60,604 bases of DNA from positions 1-60,604 of the forward strand of contig JALSQF010000003.1 in NCBI GenBank assembly GCA_026985555.1. Direction: 5' to 3'. Positions 18,456-35,744 of the stretch are shown in pieces (position 1 is the stretch's first letter; each line of letters opens with the position of its first letter). Position numbers and translations under genes: made by a program. Under the pieces are notes generated by a model, which worked only from the letters and a program-made list of their open reading frames with translations, ran no database searches and was not told where the DNA came from. This DNA is from Candidatus Moraniibacteriota bacterium (GTDB lineage Bacteria; Patescibacteriota; Minisyncoccia; Moranbacterales; UBA9337).

Positions 18456-20294
18456 ATGTTAAATTTTTTATTAATAATTGCAATTTTTGTGATAATTGCG
18501 TTTCAGCAAAAAGATATTATTAAATTAAAAAAGCAGGTTAAGCAATTTATTGGAAATCAAAACAATATAAAAAATAAAATTATTAGTAATACGGAAGAGA
18601 ACGAAACATCTCAAACATCACAAAAACAATCTTCTAAACTAACGAAAAAAGATGAATCTACTTTTTCTCCACAATATTTTCAAAATTTATCTTCTGAAAA
18701 TTTTAATTTTAAATTAAAAACAAATCAAAAAGAAAATGAGAATGTCTTCAAAAAAGATATTAGTAAAGGTTTTAGCGCCTGGATAAAAGAAAACACTTTA
18801 ATGAAAATTGGTGCTTTTTTTATTTTTCTTGCTATAAGTTGGTTTGCTCAGTATGCCATAGCGCAAGGATGGATAGGTGTAGTCGGTCGTATAACTTTAG
18901 GATTACTTTTTGGTTTGATATTAATGCTAGCAGGGTTTCGTGATGCCTATAAAAATAAAGATAGAGGTTTTGTTTTATTAGGATTAGGCGTTTCTATAAT
19001 TTTGTTGATTACTAATATTGCTAGAGTAATGTATCACTTAATGACGCCAGAAATTGCTTTAATTCTAATGCTTATAGCAGTAATATTTGTTTTCTTTGTT
19101 GCTATAAAATTTAATAATACTTACTTAGCTGGTTTTTCTTTTGCGTTAGCTATGCTTATACCAATACTAACTAATTCTCCTCATCCTTCTTTTTTTAATT
19201 TATTTTCTTATTTGTTAATATTAATTTTAGGAAGTCTTTGGATTATTTATTGGAAACAGTGGCATTTTTTGGTAACTGAAGCTTTTTTTGGTGTATCTTT
19301 ATATAGTATCCTTTCTTTTATTAATTGGGATATTTCTTCATTTGAAACATTGTTTGCTTATTCTTTTGCTTTAATTTTTCTAATTGTTTCTATTATAGCC
19401 TTAATTAAGAATGATTATATTTCTCAGAAAAAAGAAAAAGAAATAAAAGTTTATTATTTATTGTTTTCTTTGATAAATTCATTGTTTATTTTCACTTGGA
19501 CTATAACAGGAATTCCTGATTATTTGCAAAGTGTTTATTTAATTGTTTGGTCTACTATTTTTTTATTGATTGGTTTCTCTGTTTTTATTCTTACAAAAAA
19601 AGACTCTGTCTTTTTAATTTATGGTGCTACAGCTATTTTATTTTTAGGCGTAGCTACTGCTTTAGAATTAGAAAGAGATGCTTGGTTTTTAGCTTTTTCT
19701 TTAGAAGCAACTCTGGCAGTTATAGTTACTTCTCTGTTAACTAAAAAAGCTAGCAGTGTAAATAAGACCTTTTTATTGTTTGTCATTCCATTTCTATTTT
19801 CTTTAAATGTATTAGATAGTTACAATTGGTATAATTTTGGTAGGAGTATTTTCTTTTTTGGAGCAATATCACTTTATATTTTTATTTTTCTTTTAATAAT
19901 CACAGGTATTTTTCTACGTCTTTTTTTTCAAGAAGAAAAAAATTCTCCTCAAACAGTGATTTCTATTATTTTTTCTTTAGTAACTTTTTATATATTTTCT
20001 TTAATCTGGCTTATTCCTCACACTATTTTTTATAATGGTGATGCCACAGTGTTTTCTCTTATTGTATATACATTAGTAGGGTTAATATTTTATTTTAATT
20101 CTTTTGCTTCTCATCAAAAACTATTTCATATTTTTGGAATTATAACTTTAATTGGTGTAATTATGCATTTGCTGTTAGTAGATGTTTGGGAAATGGAAGT
20201 AGTAAGTAGAATAATAGTTTTTATTTTTGTAGGAATGATTTTAATTTCAACGGCTTATTTATCTAAAACTCATCGCAATAAAAAAATTGAGTAA
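18456..20294 (+). CDS. DUF2339-family multi-pass membrane protein
   Basis: N-terminal helix and linker, then MKIGAFFIFLAISWF..YA...GWIG..GRI..GLLFG, many TM helices, and C-terminal LLLVDVW.M....RIIVFIFVGMILI. Confidence 0.8.
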   Translation: MLNFLLIIAIFVIIAFQQKDIIKLKKQVKQFIGNQNNIKNKIISNTEENETSQTSQKQSSKLTKKDESTFSPQYFQNLSSENFNFKLKTNQKENENVFKKDISKGFSAWIKENTLMKIGAFFIFLAISWFAQYAIAQGWIGVVGRITLGLLFGLILMLAGFRDAYKNKDRGFVLLGLGVSIILLITNIARVMYHLMTPEIALILMLIAVIFVFFVAIKFNNTYLAGFSFALAMLIPILTNSPHPSFFNLFSYLLILILGSLWIIYWKQWHFLVTEAFFGVSLYSILSFINWDISSFETLFAYSFALIFLIVSIIALIKNDYISQKKEKEIKVYYLLFSLINSLFIFTWTITGIPDYLQSVYLIVWSTIFLLIGFSVFILTKKDSVFLIYGATAILFLGVATALELERDAWFLAFSLEATLAVIVTSLLTKKASSVNKTFLLFVIPFLFSLNVLDSYNWYNFGRSIFFFGAISLYIFIFLLIITGIFLRLFFQEEKNSPQTVISIIFSLVTFYIFSLIWLIPHTIFYNGDATVFSLIVYTLVGLIFYFNSFASHQKLFHIFGIITLIGVIMHLLLVDVWEMEVVSRIIVFIFVGMILISTAYLSKTHRNKKIE

Positions 20295-20313
20295 AATTTA
20301 GAATATAAAAAAT

Positions 20314-21438
20314 ATGTTTAAAAAAACATCAGGAATAATTTTTATATTTTTATTTTTATTCAATGTAACAAAAGCTGAAGCTATAGAAAATAGCTTAAAA
20401 GCTTTTCGCCAATTGGCTAAAATAAAATTATTATCCATTACAATTCCAACCGTAGAAGAACTAAAACTTTCTTCTATTTCAGCTAATGGTTTAGCTGTTT
20501 GGGATAAAAACGAAGGAAAATTTGTTCCTAGTAAAATTTTTAATCAAGAAGAGGTTTTTTTAACTGTTCAATCTAATACAAATCAAAACGTTTCTGCTTT
20601 AGTTGACAATGATTTAAATACTTCAGTTTTTTTTAATACAGATGGATATTCGTTATCTTTATCAGAAATAAATTTAAATATTAATCCCGTGAGTAGAGTA
20701 AAAGGAATAAGAATTATTCTTGACAAAAACGTGGCTTTGCCAAACTATATATATATTTATGACGATATTAACAAAAAAACACTTGTAGCGCGCAAAAAAG
20801 TAACTAGTTCTACTATTTATTTTCCTCAAACAGTAACATCTAAATTGATTATTCGTTTAGAACACATACAGCCATTACAAATAGCAGAGATTAAAATATT
20901 GGGAGATTTTGTTAATTATAATAAAAAATTCTTGCGCTTTTTAGCTCAACCTAATCATCAATACTTACTTTATTTAAATCCAGCTTACAATCCTCAAATT
21001 AAATTTAATTTTTCTGAATATCCAAATTTAGATGATAATAAAAGCATTAAAACTACTTCTCTAGAAAAAATAAATCCTAATCCTTATTTTCAAGAACCAG
21101 ATAGTGATAAAGATGGCGTAATAGATAGATTAGATAATTGTGTAAAAGTGCCAAACCCTGATCAAAAAGATGAAAATAAAAATGGTTTAGGTGATGCTTG
21201 TGATGATTTTGACAAAGACGGAATTATTAATAGTAAAGATAATTGCCCCAATAAACCGAATAAACTTCAAAAAGACAAAGATCGTGATGGTATTGGCGAT
21301 GTTTGCGATAATAAAGAAAATCGTTTTACAGAAAGAAATCCTTGGGTTATTTGGGCAGCTATGGGATTAGTTTTAATTACTTTTATTCTAATGAGTACTA
21401 TTGTAATAAAAATGAAAAATCAAGACAAAAGTAAATAA
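20314..21438 (+). CDS. Surface protein with thrombospondin type-3 (Ca-binding) repeats and a C-terminal TM anchor
   Basis: Signal peptide; [22 protein letters not shown]...NGLGDACD and DFDKDGI....[18 protein letters not shown]; C-terminal hydrophobic helix. Confidence 0.88.
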
Positions 21439-21480
21439 TGGCAAATAAATTCTACTTTAATTTTTAAATTATTAAAGATT

Positions 21481-21520
21481 TAAATAAAAAATAAGTTAAA
21501 TTTAACTTATTTTTTATTTA
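21481..21520. repeat. Perfect 40-bp AT-rich palindrome
   Basis: taaataaaaaataagttaaa|tttaacttattttttattta. Confidence 0.8.
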
Positions 21521-21592
21521 CTAATTTTTTAAAAAATATTAAAAATTAATTGTCAAAAGTAAAAAAAGGAATTAAAATAAATTTGTAAAATT

Positions 21593-22771
21593 ATGGTAAA
21601 GAAAAAAATAATTGTAGGAATAGATATTCGTAATATTGGAAAAAAAAGAACTGGTGATGAAGTAGTTTTTTTAAATTTAGTGAAAAATTTTTCTAAATTA
21701 AAGGATAAAAATTTTAATTATGTATTATTTACTGATATTAGAGACAAAAATAAACTAGCAAAGATAAAAAGACAATTAAACATTGAAAAAAATAATCAGT
21801 TTAAACTAGTGTCATTATCTGTTTCTTTAAAAATGAGTAAGTTTATTTGGAATTTGTGGACATTGCCAAGATATTTAAGAAAAAATCCAGTGGATATTTA
21901 TCATACGCAATATATTGTGCCTCTTTTTTTACCTAAAAAAATTAAATTAGTTACGCATATTCATGATGTTTCTTTTAAGGTTTATAAACAGTTTATTAAA
22001 TGGAGTGATTTATTTTTTTTAAATATTTTAATTCCTTATAGTATTCGGAAGTCAACTAAAATTATTGTTGTTTCTCAATTTACAAAACAAGAAATAGAAA
22101 GATATTATCCTCAAGCGCAAGAAAAGATAGAGGTAATTTATAATGCTGTTAATAATATGGAAGAATGGAACATAGAACAGGTAAGTTTTCAAAAAATAAA
22201 AGAAAAATATCAATTACCTAAAAAATATATTCTATATTTAGGAACACTTCAGCCAAGAAAAAATGTAGAAACTCTTATAAAAGGGTTTTTATCTTTTAAA
22301 AAAATAAACAATAAAGAAGACATTAGTTTAGTTATAGCTGGGAAAATAAAAGCTCATAATTTTGATAGAAAGTTAATTCCTTATCTTAATAAAACTCAAG
22401 AAAAAATTTATTTTATTGGTTTTGTTGATGAAAAAGACAAAACTAATTTAATAAAAAAAGCTTGCTTATTAGTTTCTCCATCTCTCTATGAAGGTTTTGG
22501 GTTGCCTGTGCTAGAGGCATTAAATTTAGGTGTTCCTGTGTTAGCTTCCAATATTAAACCTCATAAAGAAGTAGGAGGAGAAGCTATTAAATATTTTTCT
22601 CCTTTAAGTGTTGCTAGTTTAAGAAAAAAAATATATAATATTTGTGTTGTTTCTAAAACAGAATATGATTCTTTTTTGTCTAAAGCAAAAAAACAACTAA
22701 ATAAATTTTCTTGGAAAAAATCAGCTCAAAAGATGTTAAAAATTTACAAAGAGCTATATTTAGATGGTTAA
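21593..22771 (+). CDS. GT4 (family 1-type) glycosyltransferase
   Basis: TGDE, THIHDVSF, YLGTLQPRKN, PSLYEGFGLPVLEA. Confidence 0.92.
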   Translation: MVKKKIIVGIDIRNIGKKRTGDEVVFLNLVKNFSKLKDKNFNYVLFTDIRDKNKLAKIKRQLNIEKNNQFKLVSLSVSLKMSKFIWNLWTLPRYLRKNPVDIYHTQYIVPLFLPKKIKLVTHIHDVSFKVYKQFIKWSDLFFLNILIPYSIRKSTKIIVVSQFTKQEIERYYPQAQEKIEVIYNAVNNMEEWNIEQVSFQKIKEKYQLPKKYILYLGTLQPRKNVETLIKGFLSFKKINNKEDISLVIAGKIKAHNFDRKLIPYLNKTQEKIYFIGFVDEKDKTNLIKKACLLVSPSLYEGFGLPVLEALNLGVPVLASNIKPHKEVGGEAIKYFSPLSVASLRKKIYNICVVSKTEYDSFLSKAKKQLNKFSWKKSAQKMLKIYKELYLDG

Positions 22772-22794
22772 ATATATTAAATAACAGATACAAT

Positions 22795-23910
22795 ATGAAA
22801 AAATTTTATCAAAAAAAATGGTTTAAGATAATAGGATTATTACTTTTAGTCATTTTTTCGGTAGGGGGTTTTTTAGCTTGGAAAACAAATAAAACTTTCA
22901 AAAAAATCTCTACAGGAAGTTTATTTAATGATATTTTGCATACTTTACCTGTAGTAAAAAATGAATTAAAAGGAGAAAAAGAAGGGAGAATAAATATTTT
23001 ACTTTTAGGAATGAGAGGAGAACATGTTACAGGAGGAGGTTTATTGGCAGATACGATTATGGTTTTAAGCATTAAACCTCAAGAAAAAAAAGTGGCTATG
23101 GTTTCTATTCCGCGAGATTTATATGTTACTATTCCTGGAACCAATACTCAAAGTAAAATTAATGCAGTTTATTTTTACGGAGAAAAAAAGAAACAAGGTG
23201 GAGGAATTGAAGATATGAAAAAAATAGTTAGTGAAATTACAGGACAACCAATTCATTATGGTATAGCTATAAATTTTAAAGGGTTTTCTCAATTAGTAGA
23301 TGCTTTAGGAGGAGTTCCTTTGCATTTAGATAAGCCATTTGTTGAACCATTACAATTTCATGAAAAACATGTTTGTGATAAAAAAGTATTTACTATTCCT
23401 TCTGGTGATTTTGAGGAGAAAAAAAACAAAAAAGGAAAGGTTGTAGCTAAATATCCATTATGTTATAATTCTTATGAGGAATGTGGAGGTGTTTTTCGTT
23501 TACCTAAGGGAGATTTAAATTTAAATGGGGAACAGGCATTATGTTATGTCCGTTCCAGGGTGACTTCTAATGATTTTGAACGTGCTCGTCGTCAACAACA
23601 AATTATTCAAAAGATAAAAGAGAAAGCTTTATCCACAGGAACTTTATCTGATTTTTCTAAGATTAATGCTATTTTAAAAGCTTTAGGTGATAATGTGCGG
23701 ACAGATATGCAAATATGGGAATTAAAGAAATTATATAAAATTTATCAAGAAATAGGAGACAATGTAAATATTAAGCATAAAGTTTTAGAAAATTCTCCAG
23801 AAGGATTGTTGTATGCCCCTCAAAATACTCGTCCTGATCAAGGATATATACTTTTGCCACGAGGTGATAATTATGATAAAATAAAAGAGATGTTTAAGAA
23901 TATAATTTAA
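22795..23910 (+). CDS. LytR-CpsA-Psr (LCP) family glycopolymer transferase
   Basis: INILLLG, DTIMV, VSIPRDLYV, KINAVY, NFKGF..LVDALGGV, ALCYVRSR..SNDFERARRQQ; start at ATG 22795. Confidence 0.92.
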   Translation: MKKFYQKKWFKIIGLLLLVIFSVGGFLAWKTNKTFKKISTGSLFNDILHTLPVVKNELKGEKEGRINILLLGMRGEHVTGGGLLADTIMVLSIKPQEKKVAMVSIPRDLYVTIPGTNTQSKINAVYFYGEKKKQGGGIEDMKKIVSEITGQPIHYGIAINFKGFSQLVDALGGVPLHLDKPFVEPLQFHEKHVCDKKVFTIPSGDFEEKKNKKGKVVAKYPLCYNSYEECGGVFRLPKGDLNLNGEQALCYVRSRVTSNDFERARRQQQIIQKIKEKALSTGTLSDFSKINAILKALGDNVRTDMQIWELKKLYKIYQEIGDNVNIKHKVLENSPEGLLYAPQNTRPDQGYILLPRGDNYDKIKEMFKNII

Positions 23911-24325: not shown

Positions 24326-24904
24326 ATGGAAGAAACAAAAAAACCAACTATTTTATTAGTTGATGATGATGACAGTATAAGAGAAATATATTCTTATGCT
24401 TTTCGGAACGCTAATTTTAATGTGCTAGAAGCACAAGATGGGTTAGAAGGATTAGAAATAGCTACCAATAAAACGCCAGATGTTATTTTTACCGGAATAG
24501 TAATGCCTAGAATGGATGGTTTTACCCTGATGGAAAATTTAGCTAAAAATGTTAAGACAGCTAGAATTCCTGTTTTCATTTCTTCGCATATGGGACGTGA
24601 AGAAGATAGGCAGAAAGCTAATAAATTAGGAGCAAAAGGTTTTATTGTGCGTGATTTAGTTTCTCCTGTAGAAGTCGTAGAAGAAATTAGCAGAGTTCTA
24701 TCTAAAGGAGGAGTCTATCGTATAGATTTTGATTCTTATGTTTTGGATGCTCCTCGTTTAGCTCAGTCATTAGGGTTAAATAATAATTTTCAATGTCGGG
24801 AATGTGATGAAAAAATGGTTTTAGAAATAAAATTACAAGATAATTCACAGTGTTCTATGAAAGCTAAATTAGTTTGCCCTAAGTGTGGTTGGGAAACAGA
24901 ATGA
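24326..24904 (+). CDS. Atypical (pseudo-)receiver domain protein with a C-terminal zinc-ribbon-like domain
   Basis: ILLVDDD, then PDVIFTGIVMPRMDG (Gly at the phospho-Asp position); CRECD...CPKCG. Confidence 0.85.
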   Translation: MEETKKPTILLVDDDDSIREIYSYAFRNANFNVLEAQDGLEGLEIATNKTPDVIFTGIVMPRMDGFTLMENLAKNVKTARIPVFISSHMGREEDRQKANKLGAKGFIVRDLVSPVEVVEEISRVLSKGGVYRIDFDSYVLDAPRLAQSLGLNNNFQCRECDEKMVLEIKLQDNSQCSMKAKLVCPKCGWETE

Positions 24905-24992: not shown

Positions 24993-27900
24993 ATGATCCA
25001 GGAAATGAGAAAAGAAAAAGAAAAAGAAAAATTAAATAAGATGTTTATTAACCGAAAGAAAATCAAGTTTTTGGGGAAGTTTTTTTCTGTTTTAAAAAAG
25101 AAAAAGAAAAGAAAAAAGAGGGAACAATCTTTTCAAGATTTAAATGCTTTTTTTTCTAATTATGAATTAAAAACGAGAAAAAGTTTTGGTAAAAGAATGC
25201 TGAGGCATCTTTTTTGGATGAAATTATTTAATTTTATATTTTTTCCTTTTAAGATAATTCAATGGAATATTCTTAAGAAAATAATTCTTAAAGGAGGATA
25301 TAGTTTTTTAGTAATTATTTTAATTATTTTTGTAGTATATGCTTTGGGACCAGGTGTTTTAAGTGCACCTAAATCAGTTATAGTTACTACTCAACAAGAA
25401 TGGGAAAGTGGAACAGCGGTTAATATTTCTACAACTAGTTCTTCTGATGCTATTCAATTATTGGCAGATGGTAATTGGACAGCTAGGACATGGGCACCGT
25501 CTCCAGACACTCTTTCTTTTGGTTCTACTTCAGTTTTAGTCGGTAATTATTTATATGTAACGAGGGGATACGGAGATAAATCTTTTTATCGTTACAATAC
25601 TTTAAAAAATAAATGGGATACTTTAACTGATCTTCCTCAACCAGCGCATGCAGGTTGTGATGCTGTTTATGATAATAATGGAAATATTTATTTTATTTTT
25701 GGCGGATATTCTAAGAAATTTTATAAATATAATATAGAAAGTGCTACCTGGACAGAGTTACCAGATTTGCTAGATACTATTTATTATGGTGCTAGTATTG
25801 AATTTGATGGAACAAATTTATATATTGCACGAGGTCAGGCGACGACTGATTTTTGGAAATTTAATATTGCTGAAAATTCTTGGTATAATCTTGCTCCAGC
25901 TCCATATACTCTTTATAGAGGAAGTAATATGGTTTATGGTCAGGATGGATATATGTATGTAACTAGGGGATATAATCGTAATACTTTTTTTCGTTATGAT
26001 ATTGCTAATAATACTTGGGATAGTTTAGCGAATGCACCGATTACCTTTTACGGAGCAACTAAAGGAACTTATTATAATGGTTACATTTATTATTTAAGAT
26101 CAAATAATAGTAATATTTTTTATAGATATAGTATTAGTGGAAATTCGTGGGAAAGTTTAGAAAATGCTCCTGCTAATGTTAATTATACATCTTTAAATTA
26201 TAACAGCAATGATGGAATGATGTATGTTTTGCAAGGAAATGGTCAATATCGTTTATGGAAATTTAATCCTACAGCGGGAACAAATGGTCAGTGGGTAGGA
26301 CCCAAGAATCTTCCAGGAACAGTTAATACAGGAGGTGATTTAATATGGAATGGAGTTTCTGGTGCAGGAGGATATTTATATGCAATTAGAGGAGGAAATA
26401 ATTTTTATCGTTATGACATAAGTAATAATGACTGGAGCACTTTAGCTAATCCTCCGGCTAACTTAAGTTATGGGACAAAAGGAACTTATCATGATGGATA
26501 TATTTATATTCCGCGAGGGAATGGGAATACTTTTTATCGTTATGATACAAATACAGATACCTGGACAACCTTAGCAGATGCTCCTGGTAGTTTACGTTAC
26601 GGTTCTTGTGCAGCATATAATAGTGGTGATGGATATATTTATATGACACGAGGAAATGGAACTAATGATTTTTATCGTTATGATATTACAAGTGATAGTT
26701 GGACAACTTTATCAGACATAATTTCTAGTGCTGGAGTAAATTATAGAGTTTATGTGGGTGGTCGTTTAATAAGTGATGGGAATGATTTATATTTAATGCC
26801 TGGAGATGGAGAAACTGCTTTTCTTAAATATGATATTAGTATTGGAACATGGGAAGAATTAGCCAGAACACCTTTTGCACAATATTATGGAACAGATATG
26901 GATTATTATAATGGAAAAATATATGCTCTAGCAGGTTATTATAAAGATGAAACATGGGAATATAACATAGCTAACAATGTATGGAGAAAGCTACCCTCTA
27001 ATCAAAAATATACTTATGGAAGAGGTCCTTATAATGGAGCATCCTTGGTTTATGCTGGAAATAATTCTTTTTATGCTACTCCTGGTATGGGCTTGAGTGA
27101 TATGTGGAGCTATTCTCTTGGAACGAACAATTATTTAAATTCTGGAACTTATACTAGCAATATTTTAGATTTATCTTATGTCTCTAGTTGGATATCGTTA
27201 ACTTATAATGGAGATGAACCGGCTAATACTAGTATTTCAGTAGAAACAAGAACAAGTGCTGATGGAGAGAATTGGTCAAATTGGATAGCTCTTTCGGGTA
27301 GCAACATACAATCTCCTACAAATCGTTATATTCAAGTAAGATTTACTCTTAATAGCACAGACGGAGTGTATACACCCACCGTATATGATTTTACGGTAGC
27401 TTATAATAGTGAAGACAATCCTCCAAATAATCCTAGTAGTGTAAATGCTTATTCTCAAAGAATTAATGGTGATCCATTAACTTCTGGAATAGCTTATAAA
27501 TATGCACATCCTTATTTTTCATGGACGGGTGCTTCCGATAATGAGTCAGGAATTGCAGGATATTATGTTTATTTTGGTACTGATTCTAATGCTGATCCAG
27601 AGACAGAGGGAGTTTATCAAGTAGCTAGCGATTATGTTGTTAATTTAGCTATGCAAACTGGAAATTATTATTTAAGAATTAAAACTAAAGATAAAGACGG
27701 TAATATTACTAGTTCAACCTTTGATGCTTTTACTTATAATTACAATGGAGTGTCACCTTTTTTAACAGAAACGAAAACAACTCAAGAAGATTTTAGCAAT
27801 GGAACATTAGAAAATGTGGAGAGTCTAAGTAGTGATAAAATGAGATTATCTTCTATATCTGGAGCTGGTTTTTGGAATGAAAATCGTTTATCTTATGCTC

Positions 27901-30900
27901 CTGGAGGAATACGTTATGGAGGAGAATTGGCTTATGCAGAATCAGAAGGTAAATTGTATACTTTGAGAGGAAATAATACAACTAATTTTTATTCTTATGA
28001 TATTGCTTCAGATACTTGGGAAACTTTAGCTAACACACCTGCTTCAGTAAGAATGGGAGGAGCGGTTGTGGAAGGTCCAGATGGATATTTATATGCTACA
28101 AGAGGAAATAATACTTCAGATTTTTGGCGATATGATATTGCTAACAATACTTGGTCTGTGATGGCCAGCGCTCCTAAAAATTTTTATTATGGGGGATCTT
28201 TGAGTTATGACGGTAATCGTTATATTTATGCCTTTCCAGGGAACGATGATGCTTTTTATCGTTATGATACTCAAAATAATATTTGGACAACTCTTACTAA
28301 TGCAGAATTTGGAAATCCTAATGAAGGAGATGGTCAAAGAGTTTATGTAGGATCAGATAGTGTTTATGATGGTTCTAATAATATTTACGTGATGCAAGGA
28401 AATTATTATCCATATTTTGCTAAATATTCTATCAATGATAATTCTGAAGCAGGAGAAAGTGCTGATACTTGGACACCTTTAGCTAAAGCTCCGGCAGGAA
28501 TTTATGCTGGAGGTAGTTTAGCTTATGATGAAGAAAGCAATGCTATTTATATGTTAAGTGGTAATTGGAGACAAAATTTCTTTAAATATGATATTGATTC
28601 TAATGTTTGGACAGAATTACCTAAAGCTCCCGTATATGTGGAATACGGAGCGTCTTTAAAAGTTGTTAATGGCTACATTTATATGATTAGAGGAGCTGGT
28701 TCAACTAGTTTTTATCGTTTTAATATAGAAGAAAATTCATGGGAAACTCCACAACGAGGTTTTTTTGGGCCATCTAATATAGGAGGGGGAAGTTATTTTA
28801 CTTTTTATTATGGAACAGATATTGCACGAGATGACAATGGTAATATTTATATGATTAGAGGAGCAAGAGATAACACTTTTGGTAGGTATAATATTAAAAC
28901 AGGTGAATTTATAAAATTAGCAAAAATACCGGTGGGTGTTTATAACGGAGCTAATTTATTGTATGTTAGCGATGAAAATGCAATTTATTTGGTAGCGGGC
29001 GATATGAGAACTAGAAGAAATAATGGAGAAAATAATTATTTTATGAAATATGATATAGATAATAATTCATGGGAGATAATTACTCAAGACAGAGTTCCTA
29101 ATCAAGTTTATTACGGTTCTTCTATGACTTATGATGGAAGTCGTTACATTTATTTAACTAGAGGTGGTAATGGAAATTATTGGTGGCGTTATGATACACA
29201 AGCTAGTGCAGGATCACGTTGGTCAAGTAGATTACCGACCACATCAGGGTGGACTCAAGGATATGGAGCTAGAATCTTATATAAAGATAATTATATTTAT
29301 TCAATTAGAGGGCAAAACACAAATACTTTTTGGCGTTATGATATAAATGCAGGTACCTGGAGTCAGCTTAGCAATGTGCCAGGAAATGTTTACATAGGAG
29401 GATCTTTAGAAGACGGACAGGATGGTTATTTATATGTAACAAGAGGATATAATAGTAGTGATTTCTTTCGCTATAATATAGCTACAGATAGTTGGGAAAC
29501 TATTGAAAATGTTCCTGGTCAAATATATTATGGTGGAAGTTCAACTTATTCAAGTAGTAGAATTTGGGCAACTACAGGAGGTGGATCTAATTCTTACAGA
29601 GATGGTTTATATAGTTATGTAATAAGTTCGGCTAGTAATGGAACTGGTTTTCAAAAAACGGGTACTTATATATCGGAACCAATAGATTTAACAGCAGTTT
29701 ATAAATGGGCTAATTTAACTATCAATTATACAACGCCTGATAATACAAATTTAGTTATTTCTACACGAAGTTCTGAGGATGGAAATAGTTGGTCTGCCTG
29801 GGATCAAGTTTCTAATAAAAAAGAACTAGGATCTAATCAATATCGTTATTCTATAGTTTCTCCAGTTAATCGTTATATCCAAGTAAAAATAGATTATGTG
29901 TCCAGTGATAAAATCTATTCTCCTAGTGTAGAGGAATATTCTATAAATTATTATCAAGATATTCAAGCTCCAGATAATCCTACTAATATTAGTGCTTATA
30001 GTGCTAGTGATAAATCTACAGCAATAAATACGGGAACATGGTATAACTATAATTCTCCTTATTTTGAATGGCCCTTAGCAGAAACTCCAGGTGGTGCTAG
30101 TGATGGATCGGGTGGTTCAGGAGTAGTGGGTTATTGGGTTTATTTTGGTACTGATTCTAGTGCTGATCCTTTCGTGGATGGAATTTATCAAACAACCAAT
30201 TCTTATACAGCTAGCAATTTAAATTCAGATCAAACATATTATTTAAAAATAAAAGCAATAGATGATGCAGGTATGATACCGGCTAATTCTTACGATGCTT
30301 TTACATATAGATTTGACAATACGCCACCTACTAATCCTAGCGATATATCTGTTACTCCAGCTGGTTATACAGCTAGTGATAGCTATACTTTTCTATGGGA
30401 GTCAGATGCTTCCGATGCGAGTTCTGGTATAGCTAAGTTTCAATATAGAACAGGAGGAGATACTAGTGGAACATGGTTTGATATTGATAATACAAGCGTA
30501 GTTACTATTAGTATTCCTAATGCGGATCATGCTGACGGAGCTTATCAATCTGGAAAAAACTGGTTTTATTTAAGAGCAGTTGATAATGCTGGAAATGTTT
30601 CTAATCCTTTAGCTCAAGAATATTATTATAGTGCATCAGCTCCTTCTCCTCCTCAAAATTTAAGCGTTAGTCCGGTATATTCTACTGATAATTTGTTTGC
30701 GTTTCAGTGGGATCAACCAGCTACTTTTATTGGAGATGGAACCAAATTAAAATATTATTACTCAGTTAATGCTCTACCTAATGCTTATAATACAATAGAA
30801 ACTACACTTACTTCAGCTGGGCCAGGTCCTTTTGCAACACAGAAAGGTTCTAATAGATTTTATGTAGTGGCTATGGATGAAGCGGGAAATATTGATTATG

Positions 30901-32453
30901 ATTTGTATAGTTATGTTGATTTTACAGCTGATACTACCGCTCCAGCTGCTCCTCAGAATGTTCAAATATTTGATACTTCTGATAGAGAAAATAAAGAATA
31001 CAGTGTAGCTATAAAATGGAGTCCGCCTGCGGGAGCTGACAATGATAATTTTGATGGTTATGTAATTTATAGATCATTAACAGAAAACGGAAGTTATACT
31101 AAAGTAGCAACTACTTCTGGAACAGCTTATGTGGATACAAATTTAGAAAGCAAGCGTTATTATTATTATGTTAAATCAAAAGATAATACTAATAATTTAT
31201 CCATAGCTTCTACTAAAGTAACTATTATACCCACAGGAAGGTATACTAAACCACCAAATCTTACTCAAGATCCTAAAGTTAGCGAGCAATCTTTTGCAGC
31301 TACTTTCACATGGGGAACTAATCGTGTAGCCAGTTCTTTTGTAGAATATGGTAAAAGTATTAAGTTAGGAAAAACCAATGGGCAAGTAGATAGTGTAACT
31401 GATCATAAAGTAGTAGTAACTGGTTTAGAAGCTGGAACAAAATATTATTATAGGGTAAAATATATTGATCCTGATGGTAATATAGGAACGTCTGAAATTA
31501 AGAATTTTACCACCTTACCGCCACCAACAGTTTCTGATTTTACGGTTACAGATATTAAGTTAGATAATGCCTATGTTTCTTGGAAAACTAATACTAGCGC
31601 TATATGTACTTTGAAATATGGAGCAGGTAGTTATTCTAATTCTATTGAAGAAACAGCTAGTGCTTCTAATCATATAGAGAAAGTAACAGGACTAACAGCA
31701 GAAACTAACTATCAAGTGCAAGTAGAATGTATAGATCAAGATAATAATAGTTTCACTTCTGATCAATATAGTTTTTCTACTCCAGTTAAACCAGTAGCAA
31801 GTAATATTAAAGTGGAAAATAAAGAAAATGTAGATCTACCAACAGTTATTATAGAATATAAGACAAATGTGCCAACAACTACTTTGATTTATTTTAAAAC
31901 TAATGAAGAAAGTTCCTCTCATACTTATTTAAAAGAAGAAAAAGTGACAGAACATAAGGCTGAAATAGAAGGATTAAACCCAGCTAAAGAATATACTTTA
32001 AATATTACTGGAACTGATGAAAATGGAATAAGTATTAAAAAAGTAGAGCAAAAGATAACTACTAAATCAGATTCTCGTCCTCCAGAAATTACTACCAATA
32101 GAGCCATAGGTAAAGTGATAGGAAGAGGGAATAGTTCTCAAGCCAATATTTATGTTAAAATAGAAACCAATGAACCAACTACTGTAAAAATTAATTACGC
32201 TAAAGGTGTAACAACTTCTGGGTTTGAGCAATCTACAGGAGAAGATCCGTTGAACACCTATCATTTAATTACTATACCGGCTGAAATTGGTCAAATTTAT
32301 AGTTATCAGGTAAAAGCTACCGATGAAGCTGGCAACGTAACCAATACTAAAGCCGCTACAGTAGTAGTAGGAAGAGCTAAACGTTCGGCGCTAGAAATAA
32401 TTGGAACAACAGCGGAAGAAAAATTTGGTTGGTTGTTAGAAATATGGAAATAA
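24993..32453 (+). CDS. Giant (2486 aa) membrane-anchored Kelch beta-propeller / fibronectin type III surface protein
   Basis: Basic N-terminus plus TM helix; two blocks of 12 Kelch-like repeats (G...Y..RG...FYRY.....W..L...P); multiple FN3/Ig-like repeats. Confidence 0.9.
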   Translation: MIQEMRKEKEKEKLNKMFINRKKIKFLGKFFSVLKKKKKRKKREQSFQDLNAFFSNYELKTRKSFGKRMLRHLFWMKLFNFIFFPFKIIQWNILKKIILKGGYSFLVIILIIFVVYALGPGVLSAPKSVIVTTQQEWESGTAVNISTTSSSDAIQLLADGNWTARTWAPSPDTLSFGSTSVLVGNYLYVTRGYGDKSFYRYNTLKNKWDTLTDLPQPAHAGCDAVYDNNGNIYFIFGGYSKKFYKYNIESATWTELPDLLDTIYYGASIEFDGTNLYIARGQATTDFWKFNIAENSWYNLAPAPYTLYRGSNMVYGQDGYMYVTRGYNRNTFFRYDIANNTWDSLANAPITFYGATKGTYYNGYIYYLRSNNSNIFYRYSISGNSWESLENAPANVNYTSLNYNSNDGMMYVLQGNGQYRLWKFNPTAGTNGQWVGPKNLPGTVNTGGDLIWNGVSGAGGYLYAIRGGNNFYRYDISNNDWSTLANPPANLSYGTKGTYHDGYIYIPRGNGNTFYRYDTNTDTWTTLADAPGSLRYGSCAAYNSGDGYIYMTRGNGTNDFYRYDITSDSWTTLSDIISSAGVNYRVYVGGRLISDGNDLYLMPGDGETAFLKYDISIGTWEELARTPFAQYYGTDMDYYNGKIYALAGYYKDETWEYNIANNVWRKLPSNQKYTYGRGPYNGASLVYAGNNSFYATPGMGLSDMWSYSLGTNNYLNSGTYTSNILDLSYVSSWISLTYNGDEPANTSISVETRTSADGENWSNWIALSGSNIQSPTNRYIQVRFTLNSTDGVYTPTVYDFTVAYNSEDNPPNNPSSVNAYSQRINGDPLTSGIAYKYAHPYFSWTGASDNESGIAGYYVYFGTDSNADPETEGVYQVASDYVVNLAMQTGNYYLRIKTKDKDGNITSSTFDAFTYNYNGVSPFLTETKTTQEDFSNGTLENVESLSSDKMRLSSISGAGFWNENRLSYAPGGIRYGGELAYAESEGKLYTLRGNNTTNFYSYDIASDTWETLANTPASVRMGGAVVEGPDGYLYATRGNNTSDFWRYDIANNTWSVMASAPKNFYYGGSLSYDGNRYIYAFPGNDDAFYRYDTQNNIWTTLTNAEFGNPNEGDGQRVYVGSDSVYDGSNNIYVMQGNYYPYFAKYSINDNSEAGESADTWTPLAKAPAGIYAGGSLAYDEESNAIYMLSGNWRQNFFKYDIDSNVWTELPKAPVYVEYGASLKVVNGYIYMIRGAGSTSFYRFNIEENSWETPQRGFFGPSNIGGGSYFTFYYGTDIARDDNGNIYMIRGARDNTFGRYNIKTGEFIKLAKIPVGVYNGANLLYVSDENAIYLVAGDMRTRRNNGENNYFMKYDIDNNSWEIITQDRVPNQVYYGSSMTYDGSRYIYLTRGGNGNYWWRYDTQASAGSRWSSRLPTTSGWTQGYGARILYKDNYIYSIRGQNTNTFWRYDINAGTWSQLSNVPGNVYIGGSLEDGQDGYLYVTRGYNSSDFFRYNIATDSWETIENVPGQIYYGGSSTYSSSRIWATTGGGSNSYRDGLYSYVISSASNGTGFQKTGTYISEPIDLTAVYKWANLTINYTTPDNTNLVISTRSSEDGNSWSAWDQVSNKKELGSNQYRYSIVSPVNRYIQVKIDYVSSDKIYSPSVEEYSINYYQDIQAPDNPTNISAYSASDKSTAINTGTWYNYNSPYFEWPLAETPGGASDGSGGSGVVGYWVYFGTDSSADPFVDGIYQTTNSYTASNLNSDQTYYLKIKAIDDAGMIPANSYDAFTYRFDNTPPTNPSDISVTPAGYTASDSYTFLWESDASDASSGIAKFQYRTGGDTSGTWFDIDNTSVVTISIPNADHADGAYQSGKNWFYLRAVDNAGNVSNPLAQEYYYSASAPSPPQNLSVSPVYSTDNLFAFQWDQPATFIGDGTKLKYYYSVNALPNAYNTIETTLTSAGPGPFATQKGSNRFYVVAMDEAGNIDYDLYSYVDFTADTTAPAAPQNVQIFDTSDRENKEYSVAIKWSPPAGADNDNFDGYVIYRSLTENGSYTKVATTSGTAYVDTNLESKRYYYYVKSKDNTNNLSIASTKVTIIPTGRYTKPPNLTQDPKVSEQSFAATFTWGTNRVASSFVEYGKSIKLGKTNGQVDSVTDHKVVVTGLEAGTKYYYRVKYIDPDGNIGTSEIKNFTTLPPPTVSDFTVTDIKLDNAYVSWKTNTSAICTLKYGAGSYSNSIEETASASNHIEKVTGLTAETNYQVQVECIDQDNNSFTSDQYSFSTPVKPVASNIKVENKENVDLPTVIIEYKTNVPTTTLIYFKTNEESSSHTYLKEEKVTEHKAEIEGLNPAKEYTLNITGTDENGISIKKVEQKITTKSDSRPPEITTNRAIGKVIGRGNSSQANIYVKIETNEPTTVKINYAKGVTTSGFEQSTGEDPLNTYHLITIPAEIGQIYSYQVKATDEAGNVTNTKAATVVVGRAKRSALEIIGTTAEEKFGWLLEIWK

Positions 32454-34628: not shown

Positions 34629-35744
34629 ATGATCAAAAAAGCTTTTTCGTGGTTATTTCTATTTTTGTTTTTATTGTTGGTAACTGGTTGCCAGAAAAAT
34701 AATTCTATTGTTCAAAATAAACCTTCTCAAAAAATAGAATGGGGTGGGTTTTTAATTTCTAACGATGGAGGGAAAACATGGGAAATGAAAAATAAAGCAG
34801 GCGAGAAAAATATTTTTAATTTAAATATTTTGTCCTTAGATGTTGCTTCTCAAGGATATTTACAAACTATTTTTTTTGGAACAAAAAATAAAGGAATACT
34901 TAAAAGTATCGCTGGTGAAGATTGGGAACATTTACAATCTTTTAATTTAGTAGATGTGTATGCTTTAGCTGTTGATGAAAAAAAAGATCAACAGGACCAA
35001 TTACTAATTAATGTTTATGCAGTTGGTTCAGAAAAAAAACGAGGAAAAATTTATAAAAGTAAAGATGGAGGAGAAACATGGAAAGAAATTTACACAGAAC
35101 CAAAAGAAGGAATAAAAGTTATAAGTTTGGCTTTAGATTCCCAGGGTTGGCTTTATGCCGGAGATACGAAAGGAAGTTTATTTAGAAGTAAAGATGGAGG
35201 CGAAACATGGGAAAATGTTTTTATAGCTTCGGCTCCAATAGTGAAAATAAAAATAGATAAAAAGGATAATAATATAATTTATCTTTTACTTTATAAAAAA
35301 GGTGTTTTATTTAGCGTAGATAGAGGGAAAGAGTTTCATTCTATTGAAGAATTTAATCAAGAAAAGATTAAAAATATTATACAAGGAAAAGATGAAAAGA
35401 TTGATTTAGGAACTGTTTATTCTATTGCTTTAGATGAAAAAGAGAAGGGTTGTGTTTATCTAGGAACAGATAAGGGCGTATTTTATAGTCAAAATGCAGG
35501 TAAAAAATTGTATAAATTAAATACTCTAGGAAGTTCTAATGGATTTCCCATAAAAGCATTAGCTATTAGTCCTTTTAATTCTCAAAAAATAATTTATACG
35601 GCTGGTAAAACTATTTATGTTTCTGATAACAAAGGAAAAACATGGAGAACTTTTCAGTTAGATACTAACAAAGAAATTACCAATTTATTTTTTAGCAGAG
35701 ATAATACTGAAGTTATTTTTGCTACAATGGGACAAAGTAAATAG
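34629..35744 (+). CDS. BNR/Asp-box (YCF48-like) beta-propeller lipoprotein
   Basis: Lipobox-like LVTGC; repeated S.DGG.TW (SNDGGKTW, SKDGGETW x2, SDNKGKTW). Confidence 0.85.
   Translation: MIKKAFSWLFLFLFLLLVTGCQKNNSIVQNKPSQKIEWGGFLISNDGGKTWEMKNKAGEKNIFNLNILSLDVASQGYLQTIFFGTKNKGILKSIAGEDWEHLQSFNLVDVYALAVDEKKDQQDQLLINVYAVGSEKKRGKIYKSKDGGETWKEIYTEPKEGIKVISLALDSQGWLYAGDTKGSLFRSKDGGETWENVFIASAPIVKIKIDKKDNNIIYLLLYKKGVLFSVDRGKEFHSIEEFNQEKIKNIIQGKDEKIDLGTVYSIALDEKEKGCVYLGTDKGVFYSQNAGKKLYKLNTLGSSNGFPIKALAISPFNSQKIIYTAGKTIYVSDNKGKTWRTFQLDTNKEITNLFFSRDNTEVIFATMGQSK

Follow-up and report, generated by a model that had tools for sequence, protein, structure and literature searches.

A giant Kelch/FN3 protein of Moranbacteria, predicted to be a stalked surface binding protein, is linked to a dedicated MacB-type ABC pair

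A 60,604-nt stretch of DNA from a Candidatus Moraniibacteriota bacterium (GenBank assembly GCA_026985555.1, contig JALSQF010000003.1, positions 1 to 60,604; hereafter the window) carries an intact open reading frame (ORF) on the forward strand, at positions 24993 to 32453, that is translated over 2,486 codons into a giant protein with Kelch propellers and a stalk of fibronectin type III (FN3)-like domains. We consider it probable, at roughly 60%, that this is a Sec-exported, stalked cell-surface binding protein, with a pair of ATP-binding cassette (ABC) proteins that hold, position or release its stalk at the membrane. Sequence comparisons indicate that the giant gene is tied to this dedicated MacB-type ABC pair, a point that was missed in an earlier interpretation made from the DNA sequence alone (the sequence-only reading). 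The gene is the only one encoding a Kelch protein in its own genome and, with 7,461 nt, takes up about 1.0% of the 740,893 bp available (94.9% complete), in agreement with its earlier description as a large investment for a reduced genome.

Ultra-small bacteria of the Candidate Phyla Radiation (CPR; Patescibacteria) are regarded as living attached to other cells, and we know of no contact molecules for most CPR lineages, Moranbacteria included. A gene that occupies 1% of a 0.74-Mb genome shows almost no change between genera in its length or in the order of its domains, and more than 1,000 protein clusters combine a constant stalk, a terminal helix, a dedicated ABC system and exchangeable lectin-like heads. 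Full-text literature searches yielded no paper on this protein family or on the stalk-ABC cassette, and a family of Kelch/FN3-stalk proteins with an ABC pair is apparently undescribed. Surface binding proteins on stalks are a known kind, as are type VII ABC systems that have extracytoplasmic partners; to these the window adds a Moranbacteria subfamily with a duplicated double-propeller module and strict co-occurrence of an orthologous permease, together with headless members and a hint of heads inserted in a split sandwich. If the ABC pair does hold or drive the stalk, it would represent a new mode by which bacteria without sortase display or operate their surface proteins, and it would add a new task to those of type VII ABC systems. 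A conservative reading still yields a concrete candidate for partner-recognition studies, and the combination of stalk, tail and ABC pair provides a clean family definition for annotating thousands of giant proteins named "hypothetical".

The giant gene is linked to a dedicated ABC ATPase and permease

The giant gene is followed on the same strand, after a gap of 29 nt, by an ABC ATPase gene, which overlaps the permease gene by 17 nt. No terminator-like sites were found between the three genes in the window sequence, and the stalk gene is predicted to be co-transcribed with the ATPase and permease genes; a promoter scan was uninformative in this AT-rich DNA (65 sites vs 68.6 expected). In 31 of 32 loci, a stalk gene is directly followed on its own strand by an ATPase and a permease gene; this figure represents an upper bound on linkage because the loci were drawn from the best-scoring matches. 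These loci comprise the window, five orthologue loci (42-64% identity), six loci with stalk-only relatives and 20 phylum-wide loci, of which 19 carried the pair. A census covered 151 genomes of the order. The 18 permeases that reached at least 46% identity were all found in genomes that also carry a giant orthologue, and 16 of the 18 adjoin the giant gene on the same contig. All other permease matches in this census were paralogues with 27-36% identity. Three giant-bearing genomes were without an orthologous permease, and in one of these the giant gene runs off the end of a contig.

The linkage might have no direct functional meaning, such that an ordinary efflux or resistance pump happens to share the operon, and MacB-type pumps are indeed common, with at least one paralogue in 103 of the 151 genomes. 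That the orthologous permease subfamily is confined to genomes with the giant gene, which it adjoins, makes this explanation hardly credible, as do genes that abut or overlap and a pairing that survives head replacement and extends over more than 1,000 family clusters across the phylum.

In the ATPase, the Walker A, Q-loop, LSGGQ, Walker B (with its Glu) and H-loop motifs are all intact, from which the enzyme is predicted to be catalytically competent; its nearest NCBIfam models are of the LolD, DevA, FtsE and MacB type. The best solved relative of the permease is Bacillus subtilis YtrF (9o9x, E 1.4e-30), followed by MacB (E 1e-14 to 1e-21) and LolF/C/E. Since the permease falls below the NCBIfam equivalog thresholds for FtsX, MacB and LolCE, it appears to represent a distinct subfamily.

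FtsEX, with its partners EnvC, PcsB, CwlO and RipC, uses ATP hydrolysis for mechanical work on an extracytoplasmic partner and not for transport. The cassette resembles FtsEX in that a type VII (MacB-fold) ATPase and permease are paired with a protein predicted to lie outside the membrane, and the ATPase scores 177 bits with the FtsE model. By contrast, the permease reaches 29.5-43.8 bits with FtsX models that have cut-offs of 225-255 and carries a MacB_PCD ectodomain, the presumed partner is a 2,486-aa Kelch/FN3 protein without a hydrolase-activating coiled coil, and the pair is accessory (orthologous permease in 18 of 150 other genomes of the order) and not housekeeping. MacAB-TolC and Aat/dispersin share the MacB_PCD plus FtsX fold family and are precedents for MacB-type handling of a protein or peptide beyond the membrane. 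Unlike MacAB-TolC, the cassette contains no gene for a membrane-fusion protein or outer-membrane channel in the loci compared; moreover, the permease scores 75 bits with the MacB equivalog, vs 966 required, and the known substrates are smaller than the presumed partner by orders of magnitude. YtrEF (PDB 9o9x/9o9y) is a Gram-positive type VII ABC system that has no known transported substrate and has been associated with envelope phenotypes (PMC8060467, PMC13729185). YtrF is the nearest solved permease by sequence, with a match that lies mainly in the C-terminal transmembrane (TM) region (aa 284-453). The ytr operon, according to its published composition, differs in having no giant stalked protein, and the function of YtrEF is itself unresolved.

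Two further observations concern the permeases. Those encoded beside short LamG-headed relatives are longer (625-765 aa vs 453 aa) and align with the window's permease over the C-terminal ~270 aa only, which implies enlarged ectodomains, as judged from the alignment. In the 95%-complete genome from which the window derives, three FtsX-domain permeases were detected, all of MacB-like size (418-455 aa; on C3 and at C10:244992-246589), and none of them was a canonical FtsX of ~300 aa.

The C-terminal stalk and helix define a large family

An AlphaFold2 model of aa 1656-2486 (pLDDT 87.7, pTM 0.41) predicts a beads-on-a-string arrangement of eight beta-sandwich domains, i.e., the seven-domain stalk and the FN3-like domain of the preceding module B, followed by a 20-residue terminal helix. 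Foldseek matched the stalk best to the FN3 arrays of titin, cytokine receptors and ROS1/Sevenless. A phmmer search with aa 1781-2486 against 1.84 billion cluster representatives yielded 1,231 matches at E<=1e-30, and in nearly all top matches the whole ~700-aa query aligned at the extreme C-terminus of the matched protein, in proteins of 560 to 6,300 aa. The most conserved stretch of the entire giant protein also lies in the stalk (aa 1881-2178, identity 0.64-0.68). The last ~700 aa, consisting of the FN3 stalk and a helix with an F-G-W motif, thus appear by sequence to be a widespread C-terminal cassette that defines a large Patescibacteria family. The sequence-only reading had noticed a stalk of further FN3/Ig repeats, here assigned to seven domains, and had overlooked its importance as the family-defining part.

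The family consensus of the terminal helix is S-x-L-x-L-I-x-x-N-L-x-x-x-F-[GS]-W. The tail of the giant protein, SALEIIGTTAEEKFGWLLEIWK, fits the pattern ...L-I-x-x-N/T-L/F-x-x-x-F-G/S-W and is predicted to be helical at model residues 811-830. The motif is conserved in the orthologues and was found in 83 (strict pattern) to 101 (looser pattern) of 148 top stalk-family representatives, and the helix is insufficiently hydrophobic for a TM segment.

Shorter stalk relatives carry LamG_3, DUF2341 or a single Kelch unit as their heads, and headless members also exist, such as P0237, a 751-aa protein composed of signal peptide, stalk and tail. Because LamG, DUF2341 or a single Kelch unit occupies the same place in these relatives, we take the head to be exchangeable and to serve in ligand binding, on a stalk that stays constant. 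Among 301 genomes sampled from the phylum, 38 (13%) carry the stalk, often in tandem copies. In four loci (L008 3283-17938 on the reverse strand, G334:C3, G368:C65 and G411:C17), two or three stalk genes with different heads precede one ABC pair, and a single ABC system may serve several stalked proteins. A separate group of FN3-rich giants (P0130, P0138, P0144 and P0171) is unrelated; these proteins lack the F-G-W helix and end in a type IX secretion system (T9SS)/Por-type C-terminal sorting domain with the pattern ...G-x-Y-x-Y-x-h-x-x-G-x-x-x-x-T-x-K-h-h-h-h-K. Since they also score high, family counts based on FN3 similarity alone are somewhat inflated.

Export and anchoring

The first 125 aa comprise a variable, Lys/Arg-rich segment predicted to be cytoplasmic, a hydrophobic helix at aa ~101-123 and a conserved A-L-S-A-P site that resembles a signal-peptidase site. 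Kyte-Doolittle analysis detected one hydrophobic segment, with its maximum at aa 97-125, and the region of aa 1-125 is the least conserved part of the protein (identity 0.18-0.21). As the distant orthologues P0110 and P0120 start with ordinary Sec signal peptides of 30-50 aa, the ectodomain is predicted to be exported through a Sec-type N-terminal signal; the sequence is compatible with either cleavage of the long signal or its retention as an anchor and does not decide between the two. A cytoplasmic location, which the sequence-only reading had named as counting against a surface adhesin, is at odds with the hydrophobic helix, the A-L-S-A-P site and the plain Sec signals of the orthologues. 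A motif of the form FL..Y.L....SLGK.Y is present in most orthologues 35-45 aa before the hydrophobic helix (window 25110-25200, aa ~40-70). Its conservation is unusual for the N-region of a signal peptide and recalls the targeting motif YSIRK; no curated model matched it.

At the C-terminus, sequence and hydropathy analyses found no LPXTG motif, no TM segment and no charged tail, and no match to Sortase (PF04203) was detected in the 95%-complete genome, so that the usual Gram-positive anchoring route appears to be absent. The layout of N-terminal signal, distal binding head and proximal C-terminal stalk of Ig/FN3-like repeats is shared with LPXTG adhesins. These differ from the giant protein in their LPXTG motif, C-terminal TM segment, charged tail and sortase, whereas the stalk described here has a fixed domain number, high conservation and a terminal helix that is genetically coupled to an ABC system.

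The absence of a sortase and of a C-terminal TM anchor, the strict gene linkage and the conserved C-terminal helix, as a possible recognition signal, could also indicate that the giant protein is cargo of the ABC pair, secreted or released to act away from the cell as in Aat/dispersin or MacAB/enterotoxin. We regard this as quite improbable, as a Sec-type signal is already present at the N-terminus. Known MacB-family substrates are small and are far exceeded by a folded multidomain chain of 2,486 aa; CPR cells are also generally described as being without an outer membrane that such cargo would have to cross.

Duplicated modules with twelve Kelch blades each

The head of the giant protein consists of two modules marked by TTQQEW (nt 25386, aa 132) and TTQEDF (nt 27777, aa 929), which lie 2,391 nt apart, as the sequence-only reading had reported. 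In module A (aa ~126-928), a pre-strand segment (126-172) is followed by 12 Kelch blades (173-708), a beta-sandwich (709-805) and an FN3-like domain (806-928); in module B (aa ~929-1780), the corresponding parts are found at 929-972, 973-1545, 1546-1655 and 1656-1780. The two modules align collinearly by blastp with 30% identity over 820 columns (E 2e-87), which bears out the duplication of a module of ~800 aa. The units GTY.S...W..L...NRYIQV and P.NP...YF.W...GY.VYFGTDS.ADP, described previously as following the blades, are likewise present in both modules. Between the modules, identity amounts to 45% for the post-Kelch sandwich and 44% for the FN3-like domain (z 25 and 30 vs shuffles), and hidden Markov models (HMMs) of sandwich A and sandwich B each detect the other copy in every orthologue. 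In pairwise comparisons of the four propellers, every pair shared 35-42% identity, and neither A1-B1 nor A2-B2 clearly stood out; the duplication is therefore proven by the collinear whole-module alignment together with the sandwich and FN3 copies, and not by the propellers alone. As both modules are present in all orthologues, the duplication appears to predate the radiation of the family.

The Kelch assignment is supported by Pfam Kelch_6 (188.6 bits, cut-off 25.3, E 5e-57) and Kelch_1 (150.2 bits, cut-off 20.1, E 9e-45), with Kelch_3 and Kelch_4 likewise exceeding their cut-offs. The motif F-x-[RK]-Y-[DN]...W..L occurs in 10 copies per module at a spacing of 43-54 aa, and two further degenerate blades per module give 12 + 12 = 24 blades. 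An AlphaFold2 model of module A from a 30-sequence alignment (pLDDT 91.4, pTM 0.79) likewise contained 12 four-stranded blades according to DSSP, so that motif register and model both agree with the number of blades counted earlier. In this model, module A is a single rigid multi-domain unit that resembles tandem six-bladed propellers. Foldseek searches against the PDB matched it to the tandem-propeller proteins LRP6, Gemin5 and Utp21 over 600-760 columns and to designed six-bladed Kelch proteins (target-normalised TM-score 0.71-0.74), i.e., to generic propellers and to no functionally informative structure. These matches suggest a 6+6 split and hence two six-bladed propellers per module, consistent with the four propellers proposed in the sequence-only reading. 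The tandem propellers of LRP6 (E1E2/E3E4) are among the best structural matches to the module, although LRP6, like ROS1 for the stalk, is similar in fold only (8-15% identity, and YWTD instead of Kelch blades in LRP6), with no evolutionary or functional link implied.

The post-Kelch sandwich gave no Pfam match at E<=10, either alone or joined to the pre-Kelch strands, and a PDB sequence search with it was empty. Its HMM does match after the heads of short stalk relatives (E 3e-8 to 4e-4), and an HMM of the "TT..DF..G" pre-strand gives weaker matches directly after the signal peptides of such relatives (E 0.002-0.008). Based on these matches and on N-terminal strands of the module A model that have high pLDDT, we hypothesize that the propellers are inserted in a split sandwich, possibly a discoidin- or LamG-like jelly roll, with its first strands before and the remainder after the insertion. 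The comparison with the short relatives suggests that heads in general may be insertions into a small split sandwich.

A binding protein is favored over an enzyme

The Kelch regions contain 11-12% Tyr, 3% Trp, ~10% Asn and 11% Gly, and the corresponding values for 14 further ORFs in the window are 4.2, 0.9, 5.7 and 5.6%; these four residues are thus enriched two- to threefold, and Lys is depleted. The Tyr/Trp/Asn-rich character that the sequence-only reading had ascribed to the blades is therefore apparent in the composition.

A surface-displayed enzyme with a Kelch fold, e.g., a NanM-like sugar mutarotase or an oxidase, has to be considered, as the match to the Pfam NANM profile (PF24996) exceeds the cut-off (54.5 vs 45 bits) and homologues are labelled "N-acetylneuraminic acid mutarotase" in a few database entries. 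The PF24996 match is partial, however, covering profile positions 2-142 of 350 and overlapping the generic Kelch matches, and the NanM equivalogs are missed by a wide margin (NF010730, 55.4 bits vs cut-off 416; TIGR03547, 32.5 vs 256). In galactose oxidase, a Kelch propeller is combined with a beta-sandwich and an Ig-like domain, and the active site consists of two His and two Tyr copper ligands with a Cys-Tyr cross-link on a seven-bladed propeller. The giant protein resembles NanM/YjhT and galactose oxidase in its aromatic-rich Kelch propellers and, in the case of galactose oxidase, in the combination of sandwich, Kelch and Ig-like domains. It differs in carrying two duplicated modules, with four propellers in all, on a stalk and in lacking the His and Cys residues of the copper/radical site: Kelch region B contains no His and no Cys, and region A contains 0.4% of each, none of them invariant in the orthologue alignment. 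A site of the galactose-oxidase type is therefore excluded as far as the sequence can tell, in accord with the earlier failure to recognise such a signature. No conserved catalytic cluster was found in the Kelch regions, where the conserved charged and polar residues are mostly the Arg of a structural x-R-G turn, and with the Foldseek matches confined to generic propellers an enzyme appears very improbable; a conserved catalytic site was the other finding that had been named in advance as speaking against an adhesin. The replacement of Kelch by the lectin-like LamG or DUF2341 domains in relatives suggests, instead, that the head is a recognition module.

Conservation and distribution of the orthologues

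A search of 5.8 billion proteins identified more than 100 full-length relatives (2,370-2,680 aa, 41-82% identity, 96-100% coverage), the closest of which is 82% identical. Those with a named source are from Moranbacteria or Parcubacteria metagenome-assembled genomes and are annotated as "hypothetical". In an alignment of 76 sequences, the gap fraction of the ectodomain is 0.00-0.04 and column identity is uniform at 50-68% over ~2,350 ectodomain residues, such that only the predicted cytoplasmic and TM region is free to vary. Length and domain order are fixed, and the comparison of module number among strains that the sequence-only reading had proposed revealed no variation. As the architecture is fixed, gaps are nearly absent and module number is constant, the giant protein is not a fast-evolving variable adhesin. 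Two orthologues (G051:C14:8778-16103 and G115:C79:14289-20591) contain a single in-frame stop (TAG or TAA) and are otherwise full-length; they could be pseudogenes, sequencing errors or assembly artefacts.

This degree of conservation, with part of the stalk (aa 1881-2178) more conserved than the head and no hypervariable loops, would also suit a structural component of the envelope, i.e., a fiber or spacer of fixed length in an S-layer or wall-associated scaffold, with propellers that bind the cell's own wall polymer or neighboring copies and an ABC pair that assembles or remodels the layer. The existence of headless family members is compatible with such a role, as is the origin of YtrF, the nearest solved permease, from an operon implicated in cell-wall thickness (PMC8060467). 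An envelope-related cluster also lies upstream in the window on the same strand (18456-23910), encoding a DUF2339 membrane protein, a thrombospondin type-3 (TSP3)-repeat protein, a GT4 glycosyltransferase and a LytR-CpsA-Psr ligase. This cluster is not kept beside the cassette in other loci, however, and the patchy distribution (~14% of order genomes and 13% of the phylum sample) is unlike that of a core envelope part. Head swaps among relatives are, in addition, typical of ligand-recognition modules, and we consider an envelope component to be unlikely.

Proposed mode of action

For the stalked binding protein that we favor, the Kelch head would be built of rigid tandem modules, the Tyr/Trp/Asn/Arg-rich propellers of which would point away from the membrane and recognize a conserved ligand, either a glycan or a protein, that belongs to another cell or to the envelope. 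An FN3 domain spans ~3.5-4 nm; if this applies to each domain of the stalk, the head would reach some tens of nanometers from the membrane. At the membrane, the ABC pair would hold, position or release the base of the stalk or the terminal helix and, by analogy with FtsEX, would represent a mechanotransmission-type system that acts on a partner outside the membrane. We infer the ligand, the orientation, the ABC contact and the role of ATP hydrolysis, and the same applies to "host attachment", "glycan" and "multivalent" as terms for the giant protein.

Several points weigh against this interpretation. The canonical ligand-binding loops of a propeller are the B-C and D-A loops, and when loop classes were taken from the DSSP strands of the module A model, the orthologue entropy of B-C and D-A loops did not differ significantly from that of A-B and C-D loops (Mann-Whitney p = 0.21). 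The comparison thus pointed to no binding site, and conservation is uniform along the ectodomain. The earlier preference for binding over catalysis is thus supported in part, namely by export, by the lack of a catalytic signature and by the lectin-like head swaps, and not by conservation of binding loops. Fixed length and near-zero gaps would fit a structural machine part equally well. The family is accessory and patchy, with an orthologue in ~21 of 150 other genomes of the order (~14%) and a stalk-sharing relative only in 13 more; even within the window's own family, some genera have an orthologue and most sampled genera do not, and one genus without the giant gene holds a short fragment of the dedicated permease. 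Contact between the giant protein and the ABC pair is itself an inferred step, and the linkage count is an upper bound. Finally, a search for RNA or expression evidence found the sequence in DNA runs only (hydrothermal-vent metagenomes).

A bolder version, to which we give very little credence, is an ATP-powered surface organelle in which the ABC pair grips the helix or the stalk base and extends, retracts, re-orients or releases the Kelch-headed fiber. Such an organelle would provide pilus-poor ultra-small cells with an actuated grappling device for contacting partner cells, and the duplicated split-sandwich/double-propeller module would then represent a general "socket" for different binding heads.

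Feature coordinates and neighboring genes

Table 1. Features of the giant gene and its cassette, with genes noted at compared loci. Positions refer to the window unless a locus is named.
Feature	Position	Strand	Basis
Giant Kelch/FN3 protein gene (2,486 aa; predicted stalked surface protein)	24993..32453	+	ORF list, translation, >100 full-length orthologues
N-terminal export region (predicted), aa 1-125	24993..25367	+	Kyte-Doolittle, N-terminus alignment
Module A, aa 126-928	25368..27776	+	AlphaFold2, Foldseek, blade register
Kelch region A, blades 1-12, two predicted six-bladed propellers	25509..27116	+	Pfam Kelch_6/Kelch_1, DSSP
Module B, aa 929-1780, paralogue of module A	27777..30332	+	blastp A vs B, blade register, sandwich HMMs
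Conserved C-terminal stalk, aa 1781-2465, seven predicted FN3/Ig-like beta-sandwich domains	30333..32387	+	AlphaFold2, Foldseek, phmmer
C-terminal helix (predicted), aa 2466-2486, SALEIIGTTAEEKFGWLLEIWK	32388..32450	+	AlphaFold2 helix, orthologue/family motif
ABC ATPase, 243 aa	32483..33214	+	Pfam ABC_tran, intact motifs, linkage
MacB/YtrF-type (type VII ABC) permease, 453 aa	33198..34559	+	Pfam MacB_PCD + FtsX, linkage
Longer permeases of LamG-headed relatives	L005 7077-9359; L010 12188-14485; L008 468-2345; L009 5681-7666	n/a	Alignment with 453-aa permease
Response-regulator genes	window 24326-24904; L003 7371-7763; L009 4805-5188; L010 17579-17986; L012 4339-4707	n/a	Locus comparison

A lipoprotein gene with BNR/Asp-box repeats (Sortilin-Vps10-like; 34629-35744) directly follows the permease gene and was considered as a fourth member of the operon. 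None of the other loci compared has it beside the cassette, and its product is probably not a core partner. Of 11 distinct loci, five have a gene for a stand-alone response-regulator receiver protein close to the cassette (Table 1), which at L003 is preceded by a gene for a PAS/HAMP histidine kinase; this may reflect regulation of the cassette or coincidence.

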